From positions 22,860 to 86,859 of the forward strand of contig JBGULD010000049.1 in NCBI GenBank assembly GCA_045114745.1: a stretch of DNA of 64,000 bases. The letters run 5' to 3'. The notes below the pieces were generated by a model. It saw nothing but the letters and a program-made list of their open reading frames with translations, was not told where the DNA came from and ran no database searches. Shown in pieces: positions 2,984 through 63,598 of this stretch (the first letter of the stretch is position 1; the number at the start of each line of letters is the position of its first letter). Origin of the DNA: Bacilli bacterium (GTDB taxonomy: Bacteria; Bacillota_I; Bacilli_A; RFN20; CAG-826). The position numbers were made by a program, and so were the translations under genes.

Positions 2984-3019
2984 AAACGTTAACCTACGCA
3001 ATTTAACTAAGTTAATAAA

Positions 3020-3048
3020 TACTAAAAATATACTAATAAATAACTAGA
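3020..3048 (+). repeat. 11-bp-phased heptamer array (a): TACTAAA-N4-TACTAAT-N4-AACTAGA
   Basis: Heptamers start at 3020, 3031 and 3042. Preceded by the hairpin TTAAC-taa-GTTAA (3003-3015). The array ends just before the RBS of the 3062 gene. Confidence 0.6.
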
Positions 3049-8312: not shown

Positions 8313-8324
8313 ATTTTTAGCCGA

Positions 8325-8518
8325 TGAAAAAGAGGAGTAACTAATCCCCTTTATCATAGAGAGTCGAGGATGGTGGAAGCTCGATATAAAGAATTAGTGA
8401 AGGTCGCTTTGGAGGATAGCTACCTAGCGAAAATAGGTTAATGAAGTGCGCTAGCAAATAGCGAACTAAGGTGGTACCGCGCGTTAAGCGTCCTTAGACG
8501 AGGACGTTTTTATTTTTT
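8325..8518 (+). promoter_or_regulatory. T-box riboswitch leader (probable Val specifier GUC)
   Basis: AGAGAG stem-I motif. AGTGA followed by GGTC in the specifier region. Conserved T-box AAGGTGGTACCGCG at 8469-8482. Terminator CGTCCT...AGGACG plus T-run at 8489-8515. Lies directly upstream of valS. Confidence 0.8.
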
Positions 8519-8531
8519 AGGAGGAATTCTT

Positions 8532-11126
8532 ATGTTAGATAAAAGATATGATCCCCACAAAGTAGAAGAAGGAAAATACGAGAATTGGAAAAGTAAAGGT
8601 TATTTCACCGCTGGTGATAAATCTAAACAAGCTTTTTCCATGGTCATTCCTCCTCCAAATGTCACTGGTAAACTTCATATCGGTCATACTTGTCAAACCA
8701 CCATTCAAGATATCGTTGCTCGTTATAAAAAGATGCAGGGATATGATGTCTTATGGCTTCCGGGTATGGACCACGCTGGAATCGCCACTCAAGCAAAAGT
8801 TATGGAGAAACTCCGTAATAACGGAGTGGATGTTACAAAGATCTCTCGTGAAGAATTCTTAAAAGCGGCTTGGGGATGGAAAGATGAATACGCAAATAAC
8901 ATCCATTCTCAATGGGCCAAAATGGGCTTGGCCTTAGATTATACAAGAGAAAGATTTACCCTTGATGAAGGATTAAATTACGCTGTTAGAACAGTGTTTG
9001 TTTCCTTATATAAGAAAGGATTAATCTATCAAGGCGAAAGAATTATTAACTGGGATCCAGTACAGATGACTGCATTGAGCAATATCGAAGTCATTCACCA
9101 AAACGATGCTGGCCAAATGTTCTATTTTAAATATCCAATCGTCGGTACAAACGAACATTTGATCGTTGCCACAACTAGACCAGAAACCATGTTTGGTGAT
9201 GTTTGTGTCGTCGTTAATCCAAAAGATAAAAGATATAAGAAATATGTGGGAATGAAGGTTATAAATCCTGCGAACCATGAAGAAATTCCTATTATTGCCG
9301 ATGAATATGTCGATGTCGAATTTGGAACAGGCGCGATGAAATGTACACCTGCTCATGATCCAAACGACTTTATCATTGGTGAAAAATATCATTTCCCAAA
9401 ACCAATTATTTTTAATAAAAACGCCACAATGAATGAGTTGTGCGGAAAATATCAAGGCATGGACAGATTTGAATGTCGTAAAGTTCTTGTTGAAGATATT
9501 AAAGCCGATGGCAACTTCGTGAAGATTGAAAATATCGTTCACCCAGTCGGCCATAGTGAAAGAAGCCATTGTGTTGTTGAACCAATGCTTTCTAAACAAT
9601 GGTTTGTAAAGATGCGTCCATTAGCGGATCAAGCTTTAGTTAACCAAAAGACAACTAACAAAGTGGAATTTGTTCCTAAGAGATTTGAAAAGACTTTCAT
9701 CCAATGGATGGAAAGTGTTGAAGACTGGTGTATTTCCCGTCAGTTGTGGTGGGGCCATAGAATTCCTGCTTATTATAATAAGCAAACAGGCGAATTGCTC
9801 GTCTCTATGGATCCTCCAAAAGATATGGAAAATTGGGAGCAAGAAAGCGATGTTCTCGATACTTGGTTCTCCAGTGCTTTGTGGCCATTCTCCACATTAG
9901 GTTGGCCAAATAAAACCGAAGATTTTGAAAGATATTTCCCAACTGACACGATGGTGACAGCATACGATATTATCTTCTTCTGGGTTTCCCGTATGATTTT
10001 CCAAGCTTTAGAAATGACTAAAGAAATTCCATTTAAGGAAGTTGTTATCCATGGCTTAGTGAGAGATGAACTCGGAAGAAAGATGTCTAAGTCATTAGGT
10101 AATGGTGTTGACCCAATCGAAGTTATCGATAAATATGGTGCGGACGCTTTAAGATATTTCTTAACCACAAATGCGGCACCTGGACAAGATATGAGATATA
10201 TCGAAGAAAAGGTCATCGCTTCAAGTAATTATCTTAATAAGATATGGAACTCCGCGCGTTACGTGTTAAGTGTGTTGCCAGAAGGATTTAAAGAAGAAGA
10301 ACTTAATGTCAAAGAGTTCTCCGCTTTAGATCAATGGATTATCAATCGTTTAGAAAAGACTATCAAAGCGGTCACTCTCAACATGGATAAATATGACTTT
10401 AACGCTGCGAGTAGTCACTTATATAACTTCGTTTACGATGACTTCTGCTCACAATATTTAGAGATGAGCAAGGTTGCTCTTTCATCTAATGATGAAAAAG
10501 TGAAAAATACTACATATCAAGTATTATTCAGATGCTTAAAAGATATCATCTTATTAATCTATCCATACACTCCATTTATCGCTGAAGAATTATATTTGAA
10601 TTTACCGATTCACAAAGAATCAGTGATGTTAGAATCCTATCCAAAATATGAAGCTAACAAACTTCACACAAATGTCGATAAACAAGTGGAATTATTATTC
10701 TCCATTATTAGAGATGTGAGAAATTATAAGATTGAGAATAAACTCGCCCCTAATGCGAAACTTGATTTATCAATCAATCTACGCATCAAGATGTTTAACG
10801 GTTATGAGAGTTATCTCCAAAGATTCACATTTAGTGAAATCAAACTAGTGGATGATTCCATCGTTCATATGTCTGGTGAATTAAAGATCTACAATAATGC
10901 TGATTTATTAATCGTCAATGAAGCTGGTAAAGATGAAATTATCGCCCGTATCGATAAAGAAATCATCGAGGAAGAAAAAGAGATTGAGAGATGTCAAAAA
11001 ATGCTCTCTAATCCTAACTTCATCAGTAAGGCACCGAAAGAAAAGGTCGCTTTAGAAGAAGAGAAACTAAAAATTCATCAAGAAAATTTAGCTTTGCTAA
11101 AAGACAAAAAGACAAAACTTTTATAA
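8532..11126 (+). CDS. valS: Valyl-tRNA synthetase
   Basis: 864 aa with HIGH (LHIGH) and KMSKS motifs and a C-terminal coiled coil. Confidence 0.97.
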   Translation: MLDKRYDPHKVEEGKYENWKSKGYFTAGDKSKQAFSMVIPPPNVTGKLHIGHTCQTTIQDIVARYKKMQGYDVLWLPGMDHAGIATQAKVMEKLRNNGVDVTKISREEFLKAAWGWKDEYANNIHSQWAKMGLALDYTRERFTLDEGLNYAVRTVFVSLYKKGLIYQGERIINWDPVQMTALSNIEVIHQNDAGQMFYFKYPIVGTNEHLIVATTRPETMFGDVCVVVNPKDKRYKKYVGMKVINPANHEEIPIIADEYVDVEFGTGAMKCTPAHDPNDFIIGEKYHFPKPIIFNKNATMNELCGKYQGMDRFECRKVLVEDIKADGNFVKIENIVHPVGHSERSHCVVEPMLSKQWFVKMRPLADQALVNQKTTNKVEFVPKRFEKTFIQWMESVEDWCISRQLWWGHRIPAYYNKQTGELLVSMDPPKDMENWEQESDVLDTWFSSALWPFSTLGWPNKTEDFERYFPTDTMVTAYDIIFFWVSRMIFQALEMTKEIPFKEVVIHGLVRDELGRKMSKSLGNGVDPIEVIDKYGADALRYFLTTNAAPGQDMRYIEEKVIASSNYLNKIWNSARYVLSVLPEGFKEEELNVKEFSALDQWIINRLEKTIKAVTLNMDKYDFNAASSHLYNFVYDDFCSQYLEMSKVALSSNDEKVKNTTYQVLFRCLKDIILLIYPYTPFIAEELYLNLPIHKESVMLESYPKYEANKLHTNVDKQVELLFSIIRDVRNYKIENKLAPNAKLDLSINLRIKMFNGYESYLQRFTFSEIKLVDDSIVHMSGELKIYNNADLLIVNEAGKDEIIARIDKEIIEEEKEIERCQKMLSNPNFISKAPKEKVALEEEKLKIHQENLALLKDKKTKLL

Positions 11127-11128
11127 AC

Positions 11129-11186
11129 TTTTTTGAGACGAAAATCGTCATTTACCCCCTATTTATATAGTAGGAGGTATTTTTTT
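11129..11186 (+). promoter_or_regulatory. Conserved 5' module, copy 1 (39-nt block plus 19-nt SD spacer)
   Basis: 11129-11167 is 37/39 identical to 43051-43089. AGGAGG at 11172-11177 and ATG at 11187. Starts 2 nt after the valS stop with no intervening terminator. Confidence 0.6.
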
Positions 11187-14324: not shown

Positions 14325-14428
14325 CACGTTGTCGCCTCACTAGCTACAACCGCATAGAGAAGGTTTTCCAAAACCTATTAAGGTTACCTTAATAGCGAGT
14401 CATTAGTGAATCTATTTTAAGGAGGGAC
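14325..14428 (+). promoter_or_regulatory. Structured L21-leader-like 5' UTR
   Basis: Nested helices AGGTTTT/AAAACCT, TTAAGGT/ACCTTAA and TCACTA/TAGTGA lie between the promoter and rplU. This position matches the known ribosomal L21 leader of low-GC Gram-positives. Confidence 0.45.
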
Positions 14429-34148: not shown

Positions 34149-34151
34149 TTT

Positions 34152-34200
34152 TATAACAAAGTTATAACAAATACTAATAATATACTGAAAAACTACTAGT
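34152..34200 (+). repeat. Hairpin plus heptamer array (b): TATAAC-aaa-GTTATA then TACTAAT-N4-TACTGAA-N4-TACTAGT
   Basis: Heptamers at 34172, 34183 and 34194. The array ends 2 nt before the tkt SD. Shares about 50 bp of architecture with 63551-63598. Confidence 0.6.
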
Positions 34201-38997: not shown

Positions 38998-39026
38998 AAT
39001 AGTTAATTTTTAGTAGTTTATTAGTA
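38998..39026 (-). repeat. Heptamer array (c), ATTAGTA orientation on the + strand
   Basis: AATAGTT at 38998 (weak), TTTAGTA at 39009, ATTAGTA at 39020. Lies between the xseB stop and the dxs ATG. No SD is visible for dxs. Confidence 0.5.
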
Positions 39027-39031
39027 TAGTT

Positions 39032-47034: not shown

Positions 47035-47059
47035 TATTATTTTTTATAGATAGGAAAAT

Positions 47060-47260
47060 CCGTTTTTCGTAAAACCTTTATAATTATTTATATTCTTTTC
47101 CGTGAACTACCCCCACTTATAGAAGTTGGGGCTTCTTGCGCGATGACCCTAACGGATCAAGCATAAACAAGCTATCCGGACAGTTCCTGCCCTTGGTAAG
47201 TATTTCTATTCCCTTACTTAGAATATTATTTGCGGCGTTTATATCTCTATCATGGCTGAC
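47060..47260 (-). ncRNA. Candidate omega/right-end RNA of TnpB (extent is inferred, not observed)
   Basis: In characterised TnpB elements the guide RNA scaffold overlaps the tnpB 3' end and the right end. Here the tnpB stop codon sits in the loop of the right-end hairpin 47110-47131. Confidence 0.35.
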
Positions 47261-48455
47261 TCCACATTTAGGACAAGTCCATTTCCTGATTGATAAGTCT
47301 TTCGTGATAGAGTTTTTATATCCACATGATGAACAGAGTTGACTACTAGCAAAGTTTGATGGAACTTTAATAACAGTTCTACCATACCAAGATGACTTAT
47401 AAACAAGCATAGTAAGTAATCTAGACATAGAAGCATCCATCATAGATTTGTTATAGTCATTATCTTTACTCATATCCTTTACCTTAAGATCTTCAACACA
47501 TATCACTTGGTTTTCGTTGATAACGTATTTAGTTAACTTATGAAGGTAATCGTTTCTTTGGTTATTGATCTTTCTATAGATTCTAGCAACCTTGATTCTT
47601 TGTTTGTTTCTGTTAGATGAACCTTTCTTCATCTTATCCATCTTTCTTTGCTCTCTAGCAAGTTTATCTTCTGACTTAGCTAAGTATTTATGGTTCTTAT
47701 ATTTAAAGCCATTAGAGTCAATTACTAAATCTTTAACACCTAAATCTAATCCAATAGCCTTATCAGTCTTAGGAAGTGGTTTTATATCTGTTTCTACTAA
47801 TAAAGATATGTAATACTTATCATCACATGTTTTAGATATTGTTACTGATTTAATTATTCCGACAAAGTCTCGATGTTTCTTTATTCTTATTCTTTTACAT
47901 TTAGGGATAGAGATATATCTAGAGTTATCAGATAACTTAACCGAATCTTTTTGGTTATTCGTGGTATAACTCTGATTATTTCTTTTGCTTTTGTATTTAG
48001 GGAACTTGTTTTGACCTCTAAAGAAAGATTTAAAAGCTGTATTCCTGTTTAGCTGAGCGTTAGCCAAAGCCAAAGAATCAATTTCCTTTAAAAATGGATA
48101 ATCTTCTTTATAAGATGCAGGTGTTATGTTTTTAAACTTTTTTGTGGCCTCATATATATCGTTCATATCAGAAAGAGATTTATTATAAAATAATCGTACA
48201 CATCCAAAACATTTAGCAAAGTACTGTTTTTGCTCAGAGTTTGGATAGATGCGATATTTATAGGCTCCTCTTATCATACATATATTATATCATTATTCAT
48301 AATGATATAGAATAAATATTATACTTATTATATATTATGTAATTATTACAGCATGCGTTGCAATTCATCCCCCACCTATAGAGGTTATAATATAATCTTG
48401 ATGGCTAGCGCGATGATCTAGTCATATCAAGATGGGGGACTTCTTGCTGTTTATG
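47095..48455 (-). mobile_element. IS200/IS605-family element carrying only tnpB (no tnpA); boundaries approximate
   Basis: Related structured modules at both ends on the same strand. They are CCCCCACTTATAGAAGTTGGGG-CTTCTTGC (47110-47139) and CCCCCACCTATAGAGGT...TGGGGGACTTCTTGC (48369-48447). The inner stem covaries (CTT/AAG versus CCT/AGG). Confidence 0.75.
47117..48277 (-). CDS. tnpB: TnpB (OrfB_IS605) RNA-guided endonuclease, apparently intact
   Basis: N-terminal YKYRIYPN..Q. RuvC residues in GLDLGVKD, CVEDLKVKDM and DRDINAANNI. Zinc ribbon CSSCG...CPKCG. Confidence 0.9.
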   Translation of the reverse strand: MIRGAYKYRIYPNSEQKQYFAKCFGCVRLFYNKSLSDMNDIYEATKKFKNITPASYKEDYPFLKEIDSLALANAQLNRNTAFKSFFRGQNKFPKYKSKRNNQSYTTNNQKDSVKLSDNSRYISIPKCKRIRIKKHRDFVGIIKSVTISKTCDDKYYISLLVETDIKPLPKTDKAIGLDLGVKDLVIDSNGFKYKNHKYLAKSEDKLAREQRKMDKMKKGSSNRNKQRIKVARIYRKINNQRNDYLHKLTKYVINENQVICVEDLKVKDMSKDNDYNKSMMDASMSRLLTMLVYKSSWYGRTVIKVPSNFASSQLCSSCGYKNSITKDLSIRKWTCPKCGVSHDRDINAANNILSKGIEILTKGRNCPDSLFMLDPLGSSRKKPQLL

Positions 48456-48505: not shown

Positions 48506-48517
48506 CTATATTCCAAT

Positions 48518-48539
48518 AATCTACTAATAATCTACTAAT
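48518..48539 (+). repeat. Heptamer array (e): perfect tandem 2 x AATCTACTAAT
   Basis: 48518-48528 equals 48529-48539. Lies in the parC 3' UTR (ATTAGTA in the sense orientation of parC), flanked by the hairpin ACACAC-aaa-GTGTGT (48552-48566). Confidence 0.65.
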
Positions 48540-48570
48540 TTGATTATTGAACACACAAAGTGTGTTTTAT

Positions 48571-54157: not shown

Positions 54158-54186
54158 CGTAGTGAAATATTAGTAAAAAATTAGTA
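54158..54186 (-). repeat. Heptamer array (f), ATTAGTA orientation on the + strand
   Basis: CGTAGTG at 54158 (weak), ATTAGTA at 54169, ATTAGTA at 54180. Sits between the plsY stop and its terminator hairpin, 4 nt from the hairpin. Confidence 0.6.
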
Positions 54187-54190
54187 GATT

Positions 54191-54217
54191 ACCTATGCTT
54201 GCATAGGTTTTCTTTTT
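54191..54217 (+). terminator. plsY terminator
   Basis: ACCTATGC-tt-GCATAGGT followed by a T-rich tract. Confidence 0.75.
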
Positions 54218-58165: not shown

Positions 58166-59011
58166 ATGAAAGTTGAAATCCTAAATCCGAAAGCATATTG
58201 CGCTGGTGTCTCTAATGCGATTACGATTGCCAAGATGGCGCGTGATAAATATAGCGACAAAGGTGTTTATGTTTTAGGGATGCTTGTACATAACAACTTT
58301 GTTGTTAAACAATTAGAGAAACTCAATATCCGCTCCGTCAATAATATTAATGATATTCCAGATGGCGATGTCGTTATCTTTTCTGCACACGGGCATAAAG
58401 AAGAGTTAGATAAGATTGCTAAAAAGAAAAATCTCGTCGTTGTGGACTCGGTTTGTCCTAAAGTTCAAAGCAATATCAAAAAGATCAAAGAAGAGCTCAC
58501 TTCTGGCCATCAAATTATCTATATTGGACAGGAAGGACATCCAGAGACAGAAGCATGTTTATCACTATCTAACGATGTGATACTATATACTAAAAATATA
58601 CTAGAAAATAACTACCTCTTAAAAGACAAATCTCCCCTTGTTATTAATCAAACAACCCTCAATATTTTGGATATTAAAGACATCCATAATGAGATTTTGA
58701 GGGCTTTTCCTCATGCACGTCTTGCGGATGAAATATGTGGCTCCACTAGACTTAGACAAGAAGCTATTAAGAATCTATCGCCCGACGTTGATTTGATTAT
58801 CGTCGTGGGTGATGTGAAGTCCAGTAACAGTAAGAGATTATTAGAAATTGCAAAGCAAACACATCCCGCTGTCGATTCATTTATGATCGCGGATGCTTCT
58901 GAATTAGCTAATATCTCATGGCAAAATAAAAACCACATCGTTATTTCTAGCGGCGCTTCTACACCAGAAGAAATCATTGATGAGGTTTATAAAACTATTA
59001 TTAATTATTGA
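58166..59011 (+). CDS. ispH: 4-hydroxy-3-methylbut-2-enyl diphosphate reductase
   Basis: Three Cys ligand contexts (YCAGV, DSVCPKV, DEICGSTR), VVGD..SSNS.RL. Confidence 0.93.
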   Translation: MKVEILNPKAYCAGVSNAITIAKMARDKYSDKGVYVLGMLVHNNFVVKQLEKLNIRSVNNINDIPDGDVVIFSAHGHKEELDKIAKKKNLVVVDSVCPKVQSNIKKIKEELTSGHQIIYIGQEGHPETEACLSLSNDVILYTKNILENNYLLKDKSPLVINQTTLNILDIKDIHNEILRAFPHARLADEICGSTRLRQEAIKNLSPDVDLIIVVGDVKSSNSKRLLEIAKQTHPAVDSFMIADASELANISWQNKNHIVISSGASTPEEIIDEVYKTIINY

Positions 59012-61733: not shown

Positions 61734-63551
61734 CTATTTTCCTCCTTCGTCTTTCTTGGATTCTTTTTCTATTTTTCTCATCTTGCGACGATTATATTCC
61801 GCGATAATTCTCGCTTTCTCTAATGGATCTTTGCCATTAAGAGATTGTTCAAGAGTATCTTTTTCAAAGATTCTCTCTTTTTCGTTATCAATCGCGGATA
61901 ACAAGTTTTCTAATAATTCAGGTGTACACTTGCTGTTATGTGTGTCCTCATAAGAAATATCGACTAATTCTTTGATTAGTGTTTCCTTATTATCTATATC
62001 ACTCATCTCAAGAGATGAAATGATATCAAGCGTGGAGATTTTATCGTTCACTTTAGCGTAATCAACGATATAGTTAGCGACTTGACGATAAAGGTCATCA
62101 TAGAATGTTCCCACTCTCTCTTCATAGAAAGTAACGGCCTTTTCATCATTGAGCATCTGGAATAAGAGTTCCCTTTCCGCTAATTGAAGTTTTCTTAATG
62201 CTTTTCTTTCAGGATGGAAGTCCTTAATCGCTAATGACGGATCAGAATATTCTTGTGTGTTTTTGGCGTTCTTTAATAATTCGCGAATTGATTCGACTTC
62301 AAAACCAGTAACGTTAGATAGTTTTCTTAAATAACTATCGAGCTCTAATTGAGACTTGATTCCTAATAAAATAGGAATGAATTGTTTTACAAGAGCCTTC
62401 TTTTGTTCCATTGTGGTTAATGGGTTACTGTTTTTAAAGTAGTTCAAGGCGAAGTCCACTCTGCCAACGAGGTTATTTAAATACACCCTTAAAGCATCAG
62501 GACCATCTTGATTCAAGATTTCATCTGGATCCTTTGGACTGTTTTGGTTATCGACGATACGAACTTGTAAGCCGGCTTCATTTAATAATTTGCTAGCGTT
62601 CATCATCGCGGTTTGACCTGGTAAGTCACCATCTAGACAAAGTCTAATTTCAACATTAAGGCTTCTTAACATCGCAATATGATCTTTTGTCAAAGCGGTT
62701 CCCATGATGGCTACTGCACTATCAATGCCAATTTTGCCGAGTGCAAAGACATCCATAAATCCTTCACAAACATAGATATAACCAGCCACTTTAGCTTTTT
62801 CTTTAGCGATGTGGAAGTTATATAAAACACTTGATTTATGAAATAAATAGGTCTCTGGAGAATTGACATATTTGGCCTCATTACCATTACCAATTCTTCT
62901 GGCACTATAACCGATGACACTACCATCAGCATCACAAATTGGGAAGATGACTCTTCCTTGGTTCTTATCGATATAATGGTCACCACTTAAAACGGCAATA
63001 CCGACATCCTCCATAGTCTTGAAGGAATGACCTTTACTTTGTAAAAATGCACAAGTGGTCTTGCCGTCTTTAAATGCATAACCGAGTTTATATTTGTTTC
63101 TTAATGCGGCATCGAGGTGTCTAGATTCGAAATAATCCAAGCCTTCTTTTCCTTCCTCAGTGCTAAGCGCATACTCGTAATAAAGAGTCAAATCGTTTAA
63201 ACACTTTAAGAGAGGAACTTTTTTACTATCAACAGGTTTAACTTTAACAACACTCTCTAATCTTGGGTCATGATAGTCGGATAATTCTGCGACTTTTTTG
63301 AGCGCTTCCATAAAGGAAATGTGTTCGTATTTCTGGACAAATGAAATTGCAGAACCACTAGTTCCACAAACCCAGCAACGGAACATCTTTCTTTCTGGAG
63401 ATATGGATAATGACGGGTTTGTATCATCATGAAAAGGACAGATGGCCCAATAGTTTCTGCCTTTTTTTGTCACATTGATATATGAAGAGATAATTTTCAC
63501 TATATCAGCGTGGTCTAATACATCTTTAATCAAACTGTCATCAACAACCAT
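61734..63551 (-). CDS. dnaG: DNA primase
   Basis: Zinc finger CPFHDD..PS......F.C..CG and Toprim EGFMDV. Confidence 0.95.
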
Positions 63552-63598
63552 ATAACTTTGTTATAAATCTACTAATAATATACTAACTTTTGACTAGT
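63551..63598 (+). repeat. Hairpin plus heptamer array (g): TATAAC-ttt-GTTATA then TACTAAT-N4-TACTAAC-N4-GACTAGT
   Basis: Heptamers at 63570, 63581 and 63592. Fills the whole glyQS-dnaG intercistronic gap. In dnaG sense it reads ATTAGTA. Confidence 0.6.

Follow-up and report, generated by a model that had tools for sequence, protein, structure and literature searches.

What are the arrays of the heptamer TACTAAT that recur along this piece of a Bacilli chromosome, and what could read them? The initial annotation had described seven such arrays in the window, by which we mean the whole 64,000-nt stretch of DNA analyzed here; the source genome is a MAG fragment, with 64 kb of the genome in view. 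A pattern search of the window recovered all seven where they had been placed, and these arrays are genuine, well above the level of chance. The TACTAAT heptamer occurs 22 times in the window against 11 expected. Pairs of the form TACTAAT-N4-TACTAAT, with up to two mismatches, were found nine times against 1.04 expected from shuffles, and none of 100 shuffles reached nine, which bears out the earlier claim that pairs at 11 bp exceed chance. A three-unit position weight matrix (PWM), derived from 129 arrays of relatives, is bimodal in the window, with seven sites at 26 to 34 bits and the rest below 12 bits (shuffle maximum, 13.5). The phasing had been described as exactly 11 bp; this is the general case, but site d has one 12-bp step and was picked up once the PWM spacing was allowed to flex. 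A repeat search of the window found an eighth array (58581-58615), in the ispH reading frame. With the PWM and flexible spacing, the total comes to exactly eight.

Most of the original description of the sites stands. All seven arrays first noted are non-coding and lie in gaps between ORFs; the eighth copy is inside the ispH coding sequence (CDS). The genes named around four of them are correct (tsaC and an unknown gene at site a, aspS and tkt at b, xseB and dxs at c, glyQS and dnaG at g), ATTAGTA does lie on the upstream gene's strand at five of the seven, and the four arrays with a short hairpin 4-5 nt from unit 1 are a, b, f, and g. Sites d, e, and f had all been placed between a stop codon and a terminator. 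This is right for e and f, each with an intrinsic terminator, and wrong for d, where the terminator-like hairpin is that of a convergent nadD-like gene.

Each element has two modules. The first consists of three cTACTAAT units at an 11-bp period, separated in the PWM by 4-nt, A/T-rich spacers; the consensus, from the PWM of relatives' arrays, is A-W-C TACTAAT W-A-W-C TACTAAT w-w-w-t TACTa. The information content lies almost wholly within the heptamers, whose third position is always C, and the spacers are nearly free of G. Because they follow one another at 11-bp steps, the three heptamers all lie on one face of the helix. The second module is a perfect palindrome with arms of 4-9 bp around a 3-4-nt center, the hairpin loops being 3-4 nt of A/T. 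A stem of at least 5 bp is present in the 32 nt 5' of unit 1 in 72 of 131 arrays, compared with 27.5% of random non-coding 32-mers, and in 44 of the 72 stem-bearing arrays the stem base is exactly 4 nt from unit 1. Many of the stems are weak, AT-only hairpins of 5-7 bp. The 40 distinct hairpin sequences at the common 4-nt offset hold 258 Watson-Crick pairs, 2 G-T pairs, and 1 A-C pair. When the register was relaxed, as stem lengths differ, and pairing was scored by stem-base offset, 46 of 128 distinct sequences paired fully, against ~0.8 per register pair in shuffled flanks. Site e departs from this in the window's own subclade, with its palindrome ~11 nt past unit 3, again in helical phase.

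Where on the chromosome do these elements sit? The gap that holds site d also holds a block, ACTTCGCATAAT-TGCCA-TTATGTTAACC, that is perfectly conserved in ten species and is a dif-type Xer site (43826..43850, minus strand; TTCGCATAATTGCCATTATGTCAAC). This dif-like site lies outside any array and serves here as a context marker. It is the single occurrence of the dif pattern in the window, xerD (42098-42997) is 0.8 kb away, and in essentially every locus of the clade dif is found ~3.4 kb past parC. GC skew switches sign at dif, and genes converge there. Taken together, xerD, the conserved dif, and the skew switch indicate that the window and all of the ParC loci represent the replication terminus.

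Site d (43681..43710, minus strand; TACTAAA-TAATG-TACTAAT-TTGC-TACTAAT) is the copy nearest dif, at ~120 bp. Its TACTAATTTGCTACTAAT core is identical, spacer included, in nearly all of ten aligned species, and a conserved TTTTCCACA motif lies ~30 bp from it. To the left, site c (38998..39026, minus strand) occupies the space between the xseB stop and the dxs ATG, with unit 1 only 5 nt from that ATG and no Shine-Dalgarno (SD) sequence; it is kept in relatives and, where dxs has been lost, is present as site vi. Site b (34151..34200, plus strand) has the palindrome TTATAAC-AAA-GTTATAA (34151-34167), a 4-nt gap, and an array at 34172-34200; together with an SD sequence it takes up the whole of the aspS-tkt gap, 9.7 kb from dif. 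The remaining leftward copy, site a (3003..3048, plus strand), is the only one in the window that is far from dif (-40.8 kb). It lies at the junction of tsaC and a 302-aa gene, where the palindrome TTAAC-TAA-GTTAA (3003-3015) is followed after 4 nt by the array TACTAAA-AATA-TACTAAT-AAAT-AACTAGA (3020-3048).

On the other side of dif, site e (48511..48567, plus strand) had been described as a two-heptamer array. Its two perfect units are as reported, and an additional, degenerate third unit begins at 48511, giving TTCCAAT-AATC-TACTAAT-AATC-TACTAAT (48511-48539). Its palindrome, GAACACAC-AAA-GTGTGTTT (48549-48567), is ~10-11 nt beyond unit 3. The array stands between the parC stop and the parC terminator, and it is kept downstream of parC in almost every relative. 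Site f (54158..54208, minus strand) begins 5 nt past the plsY stop, in the convergent gap towards efp; the array (54158-54186) is separated by 4 nt from the hairpin ACCTATG-CAAG-CATAGGT (54191-54208), which is also the plsY intrinsic terminator. The eighth copy (58560..58616, plus strand) covers codons ~132-150 of ispH, with the hairpin TATCAC...GTGATA at 58560-58582 and the array at 58588-58616. Site g (63551..63598, plus strand) has the palindrome TATAAC-TTT-GTTATA (63551-63565), a 4-nt gap, and an array at 63570-63598. Its palindrome abuts the dnaG start codon, its third array unit includes the glyQS stop codon, and in the closest relatives it is the outermost copy on its side.

Seven of the eight arrays thus fall between -9.7 and +19.7 kb of dif, in a zone that is lopsided about it (-10 to +20 kb), and the 31 kb leftward of site b hold no array, with site a beyond. 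The 7 arrays in 29.4 kb around dif compare with 2 in ~184 kb elsewhere, a concentration of ~20-fold (binomial P ~3e-5), against a background that amounts to ~12% (about an eighth) of a genome assumed to be ~1.5 Mb and was drawn in part from other species, which may, like L040, have lost the system. This background comprises window positions 1-33000, the 10 kb past g in two close relatives, and seven non-terminus loci that were reached by using homologues of the window's TnpB (74-96% identical) as random entry points. The seven loci are non-redundant, span ~132 kb, include the dnaA-dnaN-rnpA origin region, and contain one array-like match (L299:17884). They belong inside the clade, with Lon 70% and YggS 67% identical to the window's proteins, and two dif-containing loci from the same TnpB sampling do bear arrays. 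In the two closest relatives (DnaG 90% and 82%), g, ispH, and f are present and the 10 kb beyond g are array-free.

Within the zone, the arrays are evenly spaced. Successive intervals from b to g measure 4826, 4683, 4830, 5647, 4430, and 4982 bp, a coefficient of variation (CV) of 0.084 that could partly mirror conserved operon sizes. With the IS removed, the d-e interval is ~3.4 kb, as in relatives, and the CV becomes 0.16. Random choices of 7 of the zone's 27 gaps have a median CV of 0.79 (P 2e-5 to 2e-4). Array-to-array spacing about dif is therefore 3.4-5.6 kb.

The arrays are less regular in the direction that they face, which can be written b> c< d< dif e> f< ispH> g>. TACTAAT is directed away from dif at 7/10 independent sites, the exceptions being a, b, and f, and the local sense transcript reads AUUAGUA at 8-9/11 sites, the exceptions being a, b, and, by its own mRNA, ispH. 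Genes run in the direction of replication, so these two rules cannot be told apart. The orientation check proposed in the initial annotation thus yields these two majority biases and no strict rule with respect to either transcription or replication.

Are the arrays kept over evolutionary time? The ParC relatives, 55-84% identical, are uncultured rumen "Bacilli/Erysipelotrichaceae" MAGs. In ~55 related rumen Bacilli MAG loci, the heptamers are kept at orthologous positions and the spacers vary. Arrays are found in the same place and in the same orientation after parC (e), in the efp/plsY gap (f), beside dif (d), abutting the dxs start codon (c), and inside ispH. The initial annotation had tied its claim to conservation at orthologous junctions, and in relatives the arrays are indeed conserved there. 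It had also proposed comparing coding with non-coding sequence, and that comparison leaves the claim standing: a crude ORF mask assigns ~8.5% of 1.12 Mb of related loci to non-coding and ~91.5% to coding sequence, and the arrays number 122 in the former and 20 in the latter, while shuffles give <1. The arrays are under selection. In the more distant L059 (ParC 46%), CTACTAG/CTACTAAT arrays occupy equivalent places. L040, which is within the clade and has identical synteny, has no arrays, and some other lineages are without individual sites, which implies that no single site is essential.

Searches further afield lead back to the same clade. In a pattern scan of metagenomes, most matches were unrelated 11-bp tandem repeats, and every match from the clade falls on an orthologue of one of the terminus sites of the window. 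TACTAAT iteron arrays are also present in Bacteroidales genomes. With regard to a phage or plasmid origin, 2.9 M viral contigs returned only 90 scattered matches, many from giant viruses. A literature search for the heptamer turned up nothing relevant.

The copy inside ispH helps to show what is being conserved. IspH is one uninterrupted ORF in all relatives, and the hairpin and array lie on a normal beta-strand and helix segment with no insertion. Synonymous-codon identity is 0.9-0.95 across the element, compared with 0.45-0.6 elsewhere (nine species, IspH 57-90% identical). Since an 11-bp period shifts the reading frame at each unit, the periodicity within ispH does not come from the protein, which argues for selection on the nucleic acid. 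The subclade lacking dxs and ispH extends this point. Arrays are still found there at the xseAB/dinB junction and where nif3 ends. The nif3 array runs over the stop codon, and after it come a hairpin and the SD sequence for a cyclophilin gene, which stands in the place of ispH. As the arrays persist after the loss of dxs and ispH, the sites appear to follow chromosomal position rather than particular genes. Where no gap is available, the array is inside a CDS, as in ispH and, in the more distant L170, in a C39-peptidase gene 4.7 kb beyond g.

The sites, then, are real, under selection, clustered at dif, regularly spaced, and persistent by position. What might they do? Conserved heptamers with free spacers, phasing on one face of the helix, and essentially wobble-free palindromes, together with independence from flanking genes, constraint within a CDS, confinement to the dif zone, and even spacing, point to a protein-read signal at the DNA level that operates on the scale of the chromosome. 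Our preferred reading, which we hold tentatively and at a little under an even chance, is that the arrays are DNA sites for a putative protein that would bind head-to-tail on one helix face and mark the dif zone. Protein binding, the identity of the binder, and the role of the bound domain are what we infer, with function assigned by analogy. The initial annotation had suggested a DNA-binding protein that reads direct repeats. In this generic form the suggestion is best supported, by heptamers that are kept while spacers drift, an orientation untied to transcription, wobble-poor palindromes, and the synonymous constraint in ispH. Its more specific part, a response-regulator regulon, fares poorly: the arrays are not at promoter positions, they persist after dxs/ispH loss, and they are concentrated ~20-fold at dif.

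How could such a system work? Three heptamers on the same face would suit a sequence-specific DNA-binding protein that assembles head-to-tail, as a trimer or as a short filament. The palindrome shares the register of the heptamers and may form an extruded hairpin or serve as the site of a partner protein. On the analogy of known systems, sites set ~3.4-5.6 kb apart would nucleate a terminus-specific nucleoprotein domain. Its task could be to bar SMC complexes from dif, to provide cohesion between sister termini, or to anchor the terminus at the division site; slowing of forks is a further possible downstream role. A fuller version of the idea is possible but clearly less probable. It would make the hairpin-plus-triplet a previously unseen class of terminus-organizing site in a Bacilli lineage without MatP and without RTP. 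A putative head-to-tail protein, possibly locking onto a hairpin that extrudes as the duplex opens from the side of dif, would use the ~5-kb sites, some in essential CDSs, to build a ~30-kb dif domain that excludes or unloads SMC, pauses late forks, or tethers the terminus to the divisome. Several observations run against our preferred reading: site a is a strong site 41 kb from dif, the array-like L299:17884 is in a non-terminus locus of a relative, the zone is lopsided, individual sites are missing from some lineages, and the transcription of every copy, with AUUAGUA in the sense direction at 8-9/11 sites, would be predicted by an RNA-level model as well.

Site families with related roles are known from other lineages. 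In E. coli, the 13-bp matS sites occur in 23 copies in an 800-kb Ter domain (PMC3330122). Like matS with its protein MatP, the arrays would be a short protein-binding site family confined to the terminus around dif, scattered at intervals over intergenic and coding sequence and acting as a set rather than gene by gene (PMC3330122). The two differ in form, a 13-bp palindrome versus three direct heptamers with a palindrome module, and in density, 23 in 800 kb versus ~7 in 30 kb at ~5-kb steps. The matS sequence GTGACRNYGTCAC has no match in the window at one mismatch or fewer, and no MatP-like protein was found among the window proteins scanned. To our knowledge, MatP is known only from enterobacteria and vibrios. 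Elsewhere, sites flanking dif block the crossing of SMC, through XDS and XerD in B. subtilis, where Smc-ScpAB is unloaded, and through the TrmBL2 roadblock in Thermococcus (PMC11840125). Keeping SMC from dif is a recurrent need that is met by site and protein pairs that differ between lineages (PMC11840125, PMC3330122), and barring SMC is by this likeness a plausible role for the arrays in a Bacilli lineage. XDS, however, are a few dif-like half sites bound by XerD, and the arrays are unlike dif arms: the heptamer does not resemble the XerD-binding arm TTATGTTAAC, and the dif pattern itself is found once only in the window. The parS sites of ParB offer a further parallel, as a handful of conserved sites, some in genes, that are spread over tens of kilobases at one landmark and nucleate a domain; they differ in being 16-bp palindromes near the origin, in contrast to direct repeats at the terminus. 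We therefore classify the arrays with the terminus-specific site families. We know of no described counterpart to their architecture, density, and spacing.

The same evidence has to be weighed against other functions at the terminus. The arrays might be Ter-like sites of fork pausing or arrest, where a bound protein slows or stops replisomes and so brings the two forks together close to dif. They would then do the work of RTP/Ter or Tus/Ter in a lineage from which neither system is known. We consider this unlikely, even though the arrays cluster around dif, share with RTP Ter and Tus Ter sites a terminus location, a length of ~30 bp, and an inherent polarity, and have TACTAAT directed away from dif at the innermost pair d/e and at 7/10 independent sites. 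The heptamer is also similar to the core, TACYAAAT/ACTAA, of the Ter consensus of B. subtilis, KMACTAANWNNWCTATGTACYAAATNTTC, with the core letters TAC(T/C)AA(A)T common to both (PMC3317982), and a termination mechanism of unknown kind near dif is possible in species without Tus or RTP (PMC3317982). However, a fork trap consists of two opposed, uniformly oriented groups that forks can pass on the way into the terminus and not on the way out, which is not the layout seen here (b+ c- d-, then dif, then e+ f- ispH+ g+). Whichever polarity rule applies, barriers that work efficiently would in this pattern halt both forks short of dif, so a classical fork trap is not supported, and the exceptions f and b are strong sites, f being conserved in relatives as well. 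Ter sites are also built differently, from inverted half-sites for dimers, two dimer sites to each, rather than from three direct repeats; the full RTP Ter consensus has no match in the window at three mismatches or fewer, and no RTP-like gene was found among the ~41/53 window proteins scanned. Pausing that is non-polar or leaky is possible. We think it very unlikely that the arrays orient or load a dif-directed translocase (FtsK/SpoIIIE, in the manner of KOPS/SRS) or serve as Xer accessory sites. Their concentration around dif, the direction of ATTAGTA towards dif on the leading strand at 7/10 sites, and the strict conservation of the nearest copy, d, down to its spacer would all fit such a role. 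KOPS and SRS, though, are single G-rich octamers skewed along whole replichores, not AT-rich, 11-bp-phased triplets local to the terminus, and three of ten sites, all conserved, oppose the polarity. Accessory sequences for recombination would hardly lie 10-20 kb from dif, and the arrays have no similarity to dif arms.

Other explanations look to transcripts, promoters, or mobile DNA. The initial annotation had offered an RNA-binding protein or RNase as its alternative, and we regard as quite unlikely the corresponding reading, in which AUUAGUA x3 plus a hairpin in 3' UTRs and operon junctions would govern 3'-end formation, read-through, or decay. Part of that suggestion does hold, in that every copy is in transcribed sequence, with e and f between a stop codon and an intrinsic terminator, AUUAGUA is in the local sense transcript at 8-9/11 independent sites, and the hairpin is at a fixed distance. 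But the motif is on the opposite strand in a, b, and the ispH mRNA, and only 2/261 stem pairs are G-T, though RNA helices normally tolerate G-U, and many stems are weak, AT-only, and 5-7 bp long. Neither even spacing within 30 kb of dif nor persistence despite replacement of the downstream gene is expected of an RNA regulon, so the clustering at the terminus, the regular spacing, and the scarcity of wobble pairs are left unexplained. No Rfam covariance model matches at the arrays even at E<=1; in the window, only a T-box and an L21 leader pass thresholds. That the arrays are operators for a transcription factor, such as an OmpR/PhoB-type response regulator that activates or roadblocks the flanking genes, is highly unlikely. 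The architecture is indeed that of a Pho box, a 7-bp direct repeat with a 4-bp AT-rich spacer at an 11-bp period, head-to-tail on one face; start codons follow a and b at 13-15 nt, and dxs, ispH, and tkt are metabolically linked. Operators of the OmpR/PhoB family extend over the -35 regions of the promoters that they regulate. The arrays, by contrast, avoid promoters and divergent gaps, canonical sigma-70 promoters being located elsewhere in the window. They occupy operon junctions, 3' ends and UTRs, convergent gaps, and one CDS, several of them at the end of an operon or in the space where convergent genes meet, and they outlast the loss of dxs and ispH. Chromosomal position is what they share: flanking functions are unrelated, and an operator does not account for clustering at the terminus. 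The least probable reading, and one to which we attach hardly any weight, is that the arrays are selfish or relic repeats (REP/BIME, MITE) or sites for HUH nucleases (rolling-circle Rep, Y1 transposase) that collect at the terminus. HUH substrates can share the layout, as in the pMV158-type rolling-circle origin, with its nick-site hairpin TACTACGAC, three 11-bp direct repeats, and adjacent Rep gene. REP elements likewise are extragenic yet transcribed, lying between operon genes or after the last one in either orientation and combining a hairpin with a protein-binding motif; an IS605-family element is 60 bp from site e, and terminus regions tend to gather mobile DNA. Yet REP hairpins are conserved copies, present by the hundreds genome-wide and mobilized by RAYT, whereas here the heptamers are conserved, the hairpins differ from site to site, which argues against copy-and-paste spread, and the small number of copies is restricted to the terminus (~8 per 64 kb, almost none elsewhere). 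Across lineages of 45-80% protein identity, the arrays are orthologous and subject to purifying selection, and the IS end is not at the array. The similarity to a pMV158-type origin stops at the architecture, as the loops are 3-4 nt of A/T and no Rep gene is present in the scanned proteins, among which no RAYT or TnpA gene was found either.

Several narrower ideas were tried and set aside. The arrays have no consistent -35/-10 geometry that would make them promoters, and at dxs orthologues the array is anywhere from 1 to 7 nt from the ATG. Repeats at 11 bp do place TAA/TAG in all frames on both strands, as an all-frame stop cassette would, but such a cassette would need to conserve only the stop triplets, and stop-codon usage is ordinary. 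Targeting of the arrays by IS605/TnpB was discarded on the basis of nine aligned IS copies, in which the left end is ~60 bp off, past the parC terminator. A general link to DnaA boxes fails since TTTTCCACA flanks d and, in one subclade, f, and the other sites are without it. A regulon of the MEP pathway (dxs, ispH, tkt) does not fit arrays that remain where dxs and ispH have been lost. A primase CTA signal would need a fixed strand, as would Rho rut-like YC spacing, and no fixed strand was observed. A search for the binder of the arrays found none. The 181-aa MazF/PemK-like protein encoded beside dif was rejected as a candidate: its gene does not co-vary with the arrays, being absent from some array-bearing lineages, and its similarity to MazF structures is weak.

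Our preferred reading, a terminus-marking protein and its sites, bears on how the terminus is organized and replication completed outside the enterobacteria, with MatP, and the close relatives of Bacillus, with RTP and XDS. The frozen synonymous sites of ispH are a clear case of a chromosome-level signal laid over protein-coding sequence, and the same signal is retained by position after gene loss. The question can be tested in a large uncultured rumen clade, where the element that marks the dif zone is concrete, conserved, and easily synthesized. In oligo form, the array unit is 2-3x AATCTACTAAT.

A dif-type Xer recombination site (TTCGCATAATTGCCATTATGTCAAC, window 43826-43850, minus strand) lies in a convergent gap at which the GC skew of the window changes sign, and it is kept about 3.4 kb beyond parC in essentially every related locus. 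On this evidence the window covers the replication terminus. Close by is xerD (42098-42997, plus strand). Between xerD and dif is the gene for a 181-aa protein (43109-43654, plus strand) whose residues 57-145 make up a domain distantly resembling MazF/PemK; many relatives, not all, have a conserved copy of this protein. The dif gap also holds clustered DnaA-box-like TTTTCCACA motifs, at 43673-43681 (plus strand) and at 43730-43738, 43753-43761 and 43885-43893 (all minus). One of them, at a distance of about 30 bp from array d (the TACTAAT array nearest dif), shows no variation among ten species, and motifs similar to TTTTCCACA stand next to arrays d and f (the latter in the plsY/efp gap) in the L023-like subclade of relatives.

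A 52-nt repeat (AACTTTTWTAAAYTTTTTTGAGACGAAAATCG..ATTTACCCCCTATTTATA) occurs at 11116-11167 and 43038-43089, with 92% identity between copies and a partial copy at about 43866-43885. Each of the two lies immediately 5' of the Shine-Dalgarno sequence and ATG of a gene, radC-like in one case and MazF/PemK-like in the other, and the repeat may be a promoter or operator common to its genes. Its core, ATTTTACCCCTAT, is found again near dif and is kept in relatives.

From its spacing of TTAACA, 18 nt, TATAAT, 6 nt and ATG (40888-40926), dinB appears to be leaderless. At 39027-39034 and 63549-63565, respectively, dxs and dnaG lack a Shine-Dalgarno sequence; an array or palindrome extends directly to both start codons. 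A T-box leader (8315-8498, plus strand) precedes valS and an L21 leader (14338-14413, plus strand) precedes rplU; the L21 promoter spacer contains a palindrome, TATATAAC-TTTT-GTTATAT, that resembles those adjoining the arrays.

Directly beyond the parC terminator is the insertion point of an IS605-family element carrying only tnpB (386 aa; about 47046-48450, minus strand). This tnpB has more than 7000 homologues at E<1e-60, and copies 74-96% identical are scattered over unrelated sites of numerous rumen contigs. At its left end, which is conserved, the element begins TTTTAACATAAAC AGCAAGAAGTCCCCC.

A more distant relative (L170:440-500) has an extra array 4.7 kb past the glyQS|dnaG site, inside the coding sequence for a membrane protein that has a C39-peptidase domain; no such array is present in the two closest relatives. 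Five ParC loci forming a subclade (L017, L018, L029, L031 and L057) have neither dxs nor ispH at the conserved positions but keep ispG, with a cyclophilin gene replacing ispH after nif3.

A separate family has its heptamer and its period in common with the window arrays but differs in phylum. It consists of 4-8 tandem 11-bp units, (A/C)A(C/T)(C/A)TACTAAT, in metagenome contigs that are Bacteroidales-like and have 45-52% GC (L085:4054-4115, L089:2025-2075, L091:7105-7155, L103:3066-3140 and L196:5210-5271; also L174, L194, L199, L200 and others). The family recurs at equivalent positions, 3' of murI and 5' of a 146-aa gene and of rplM.
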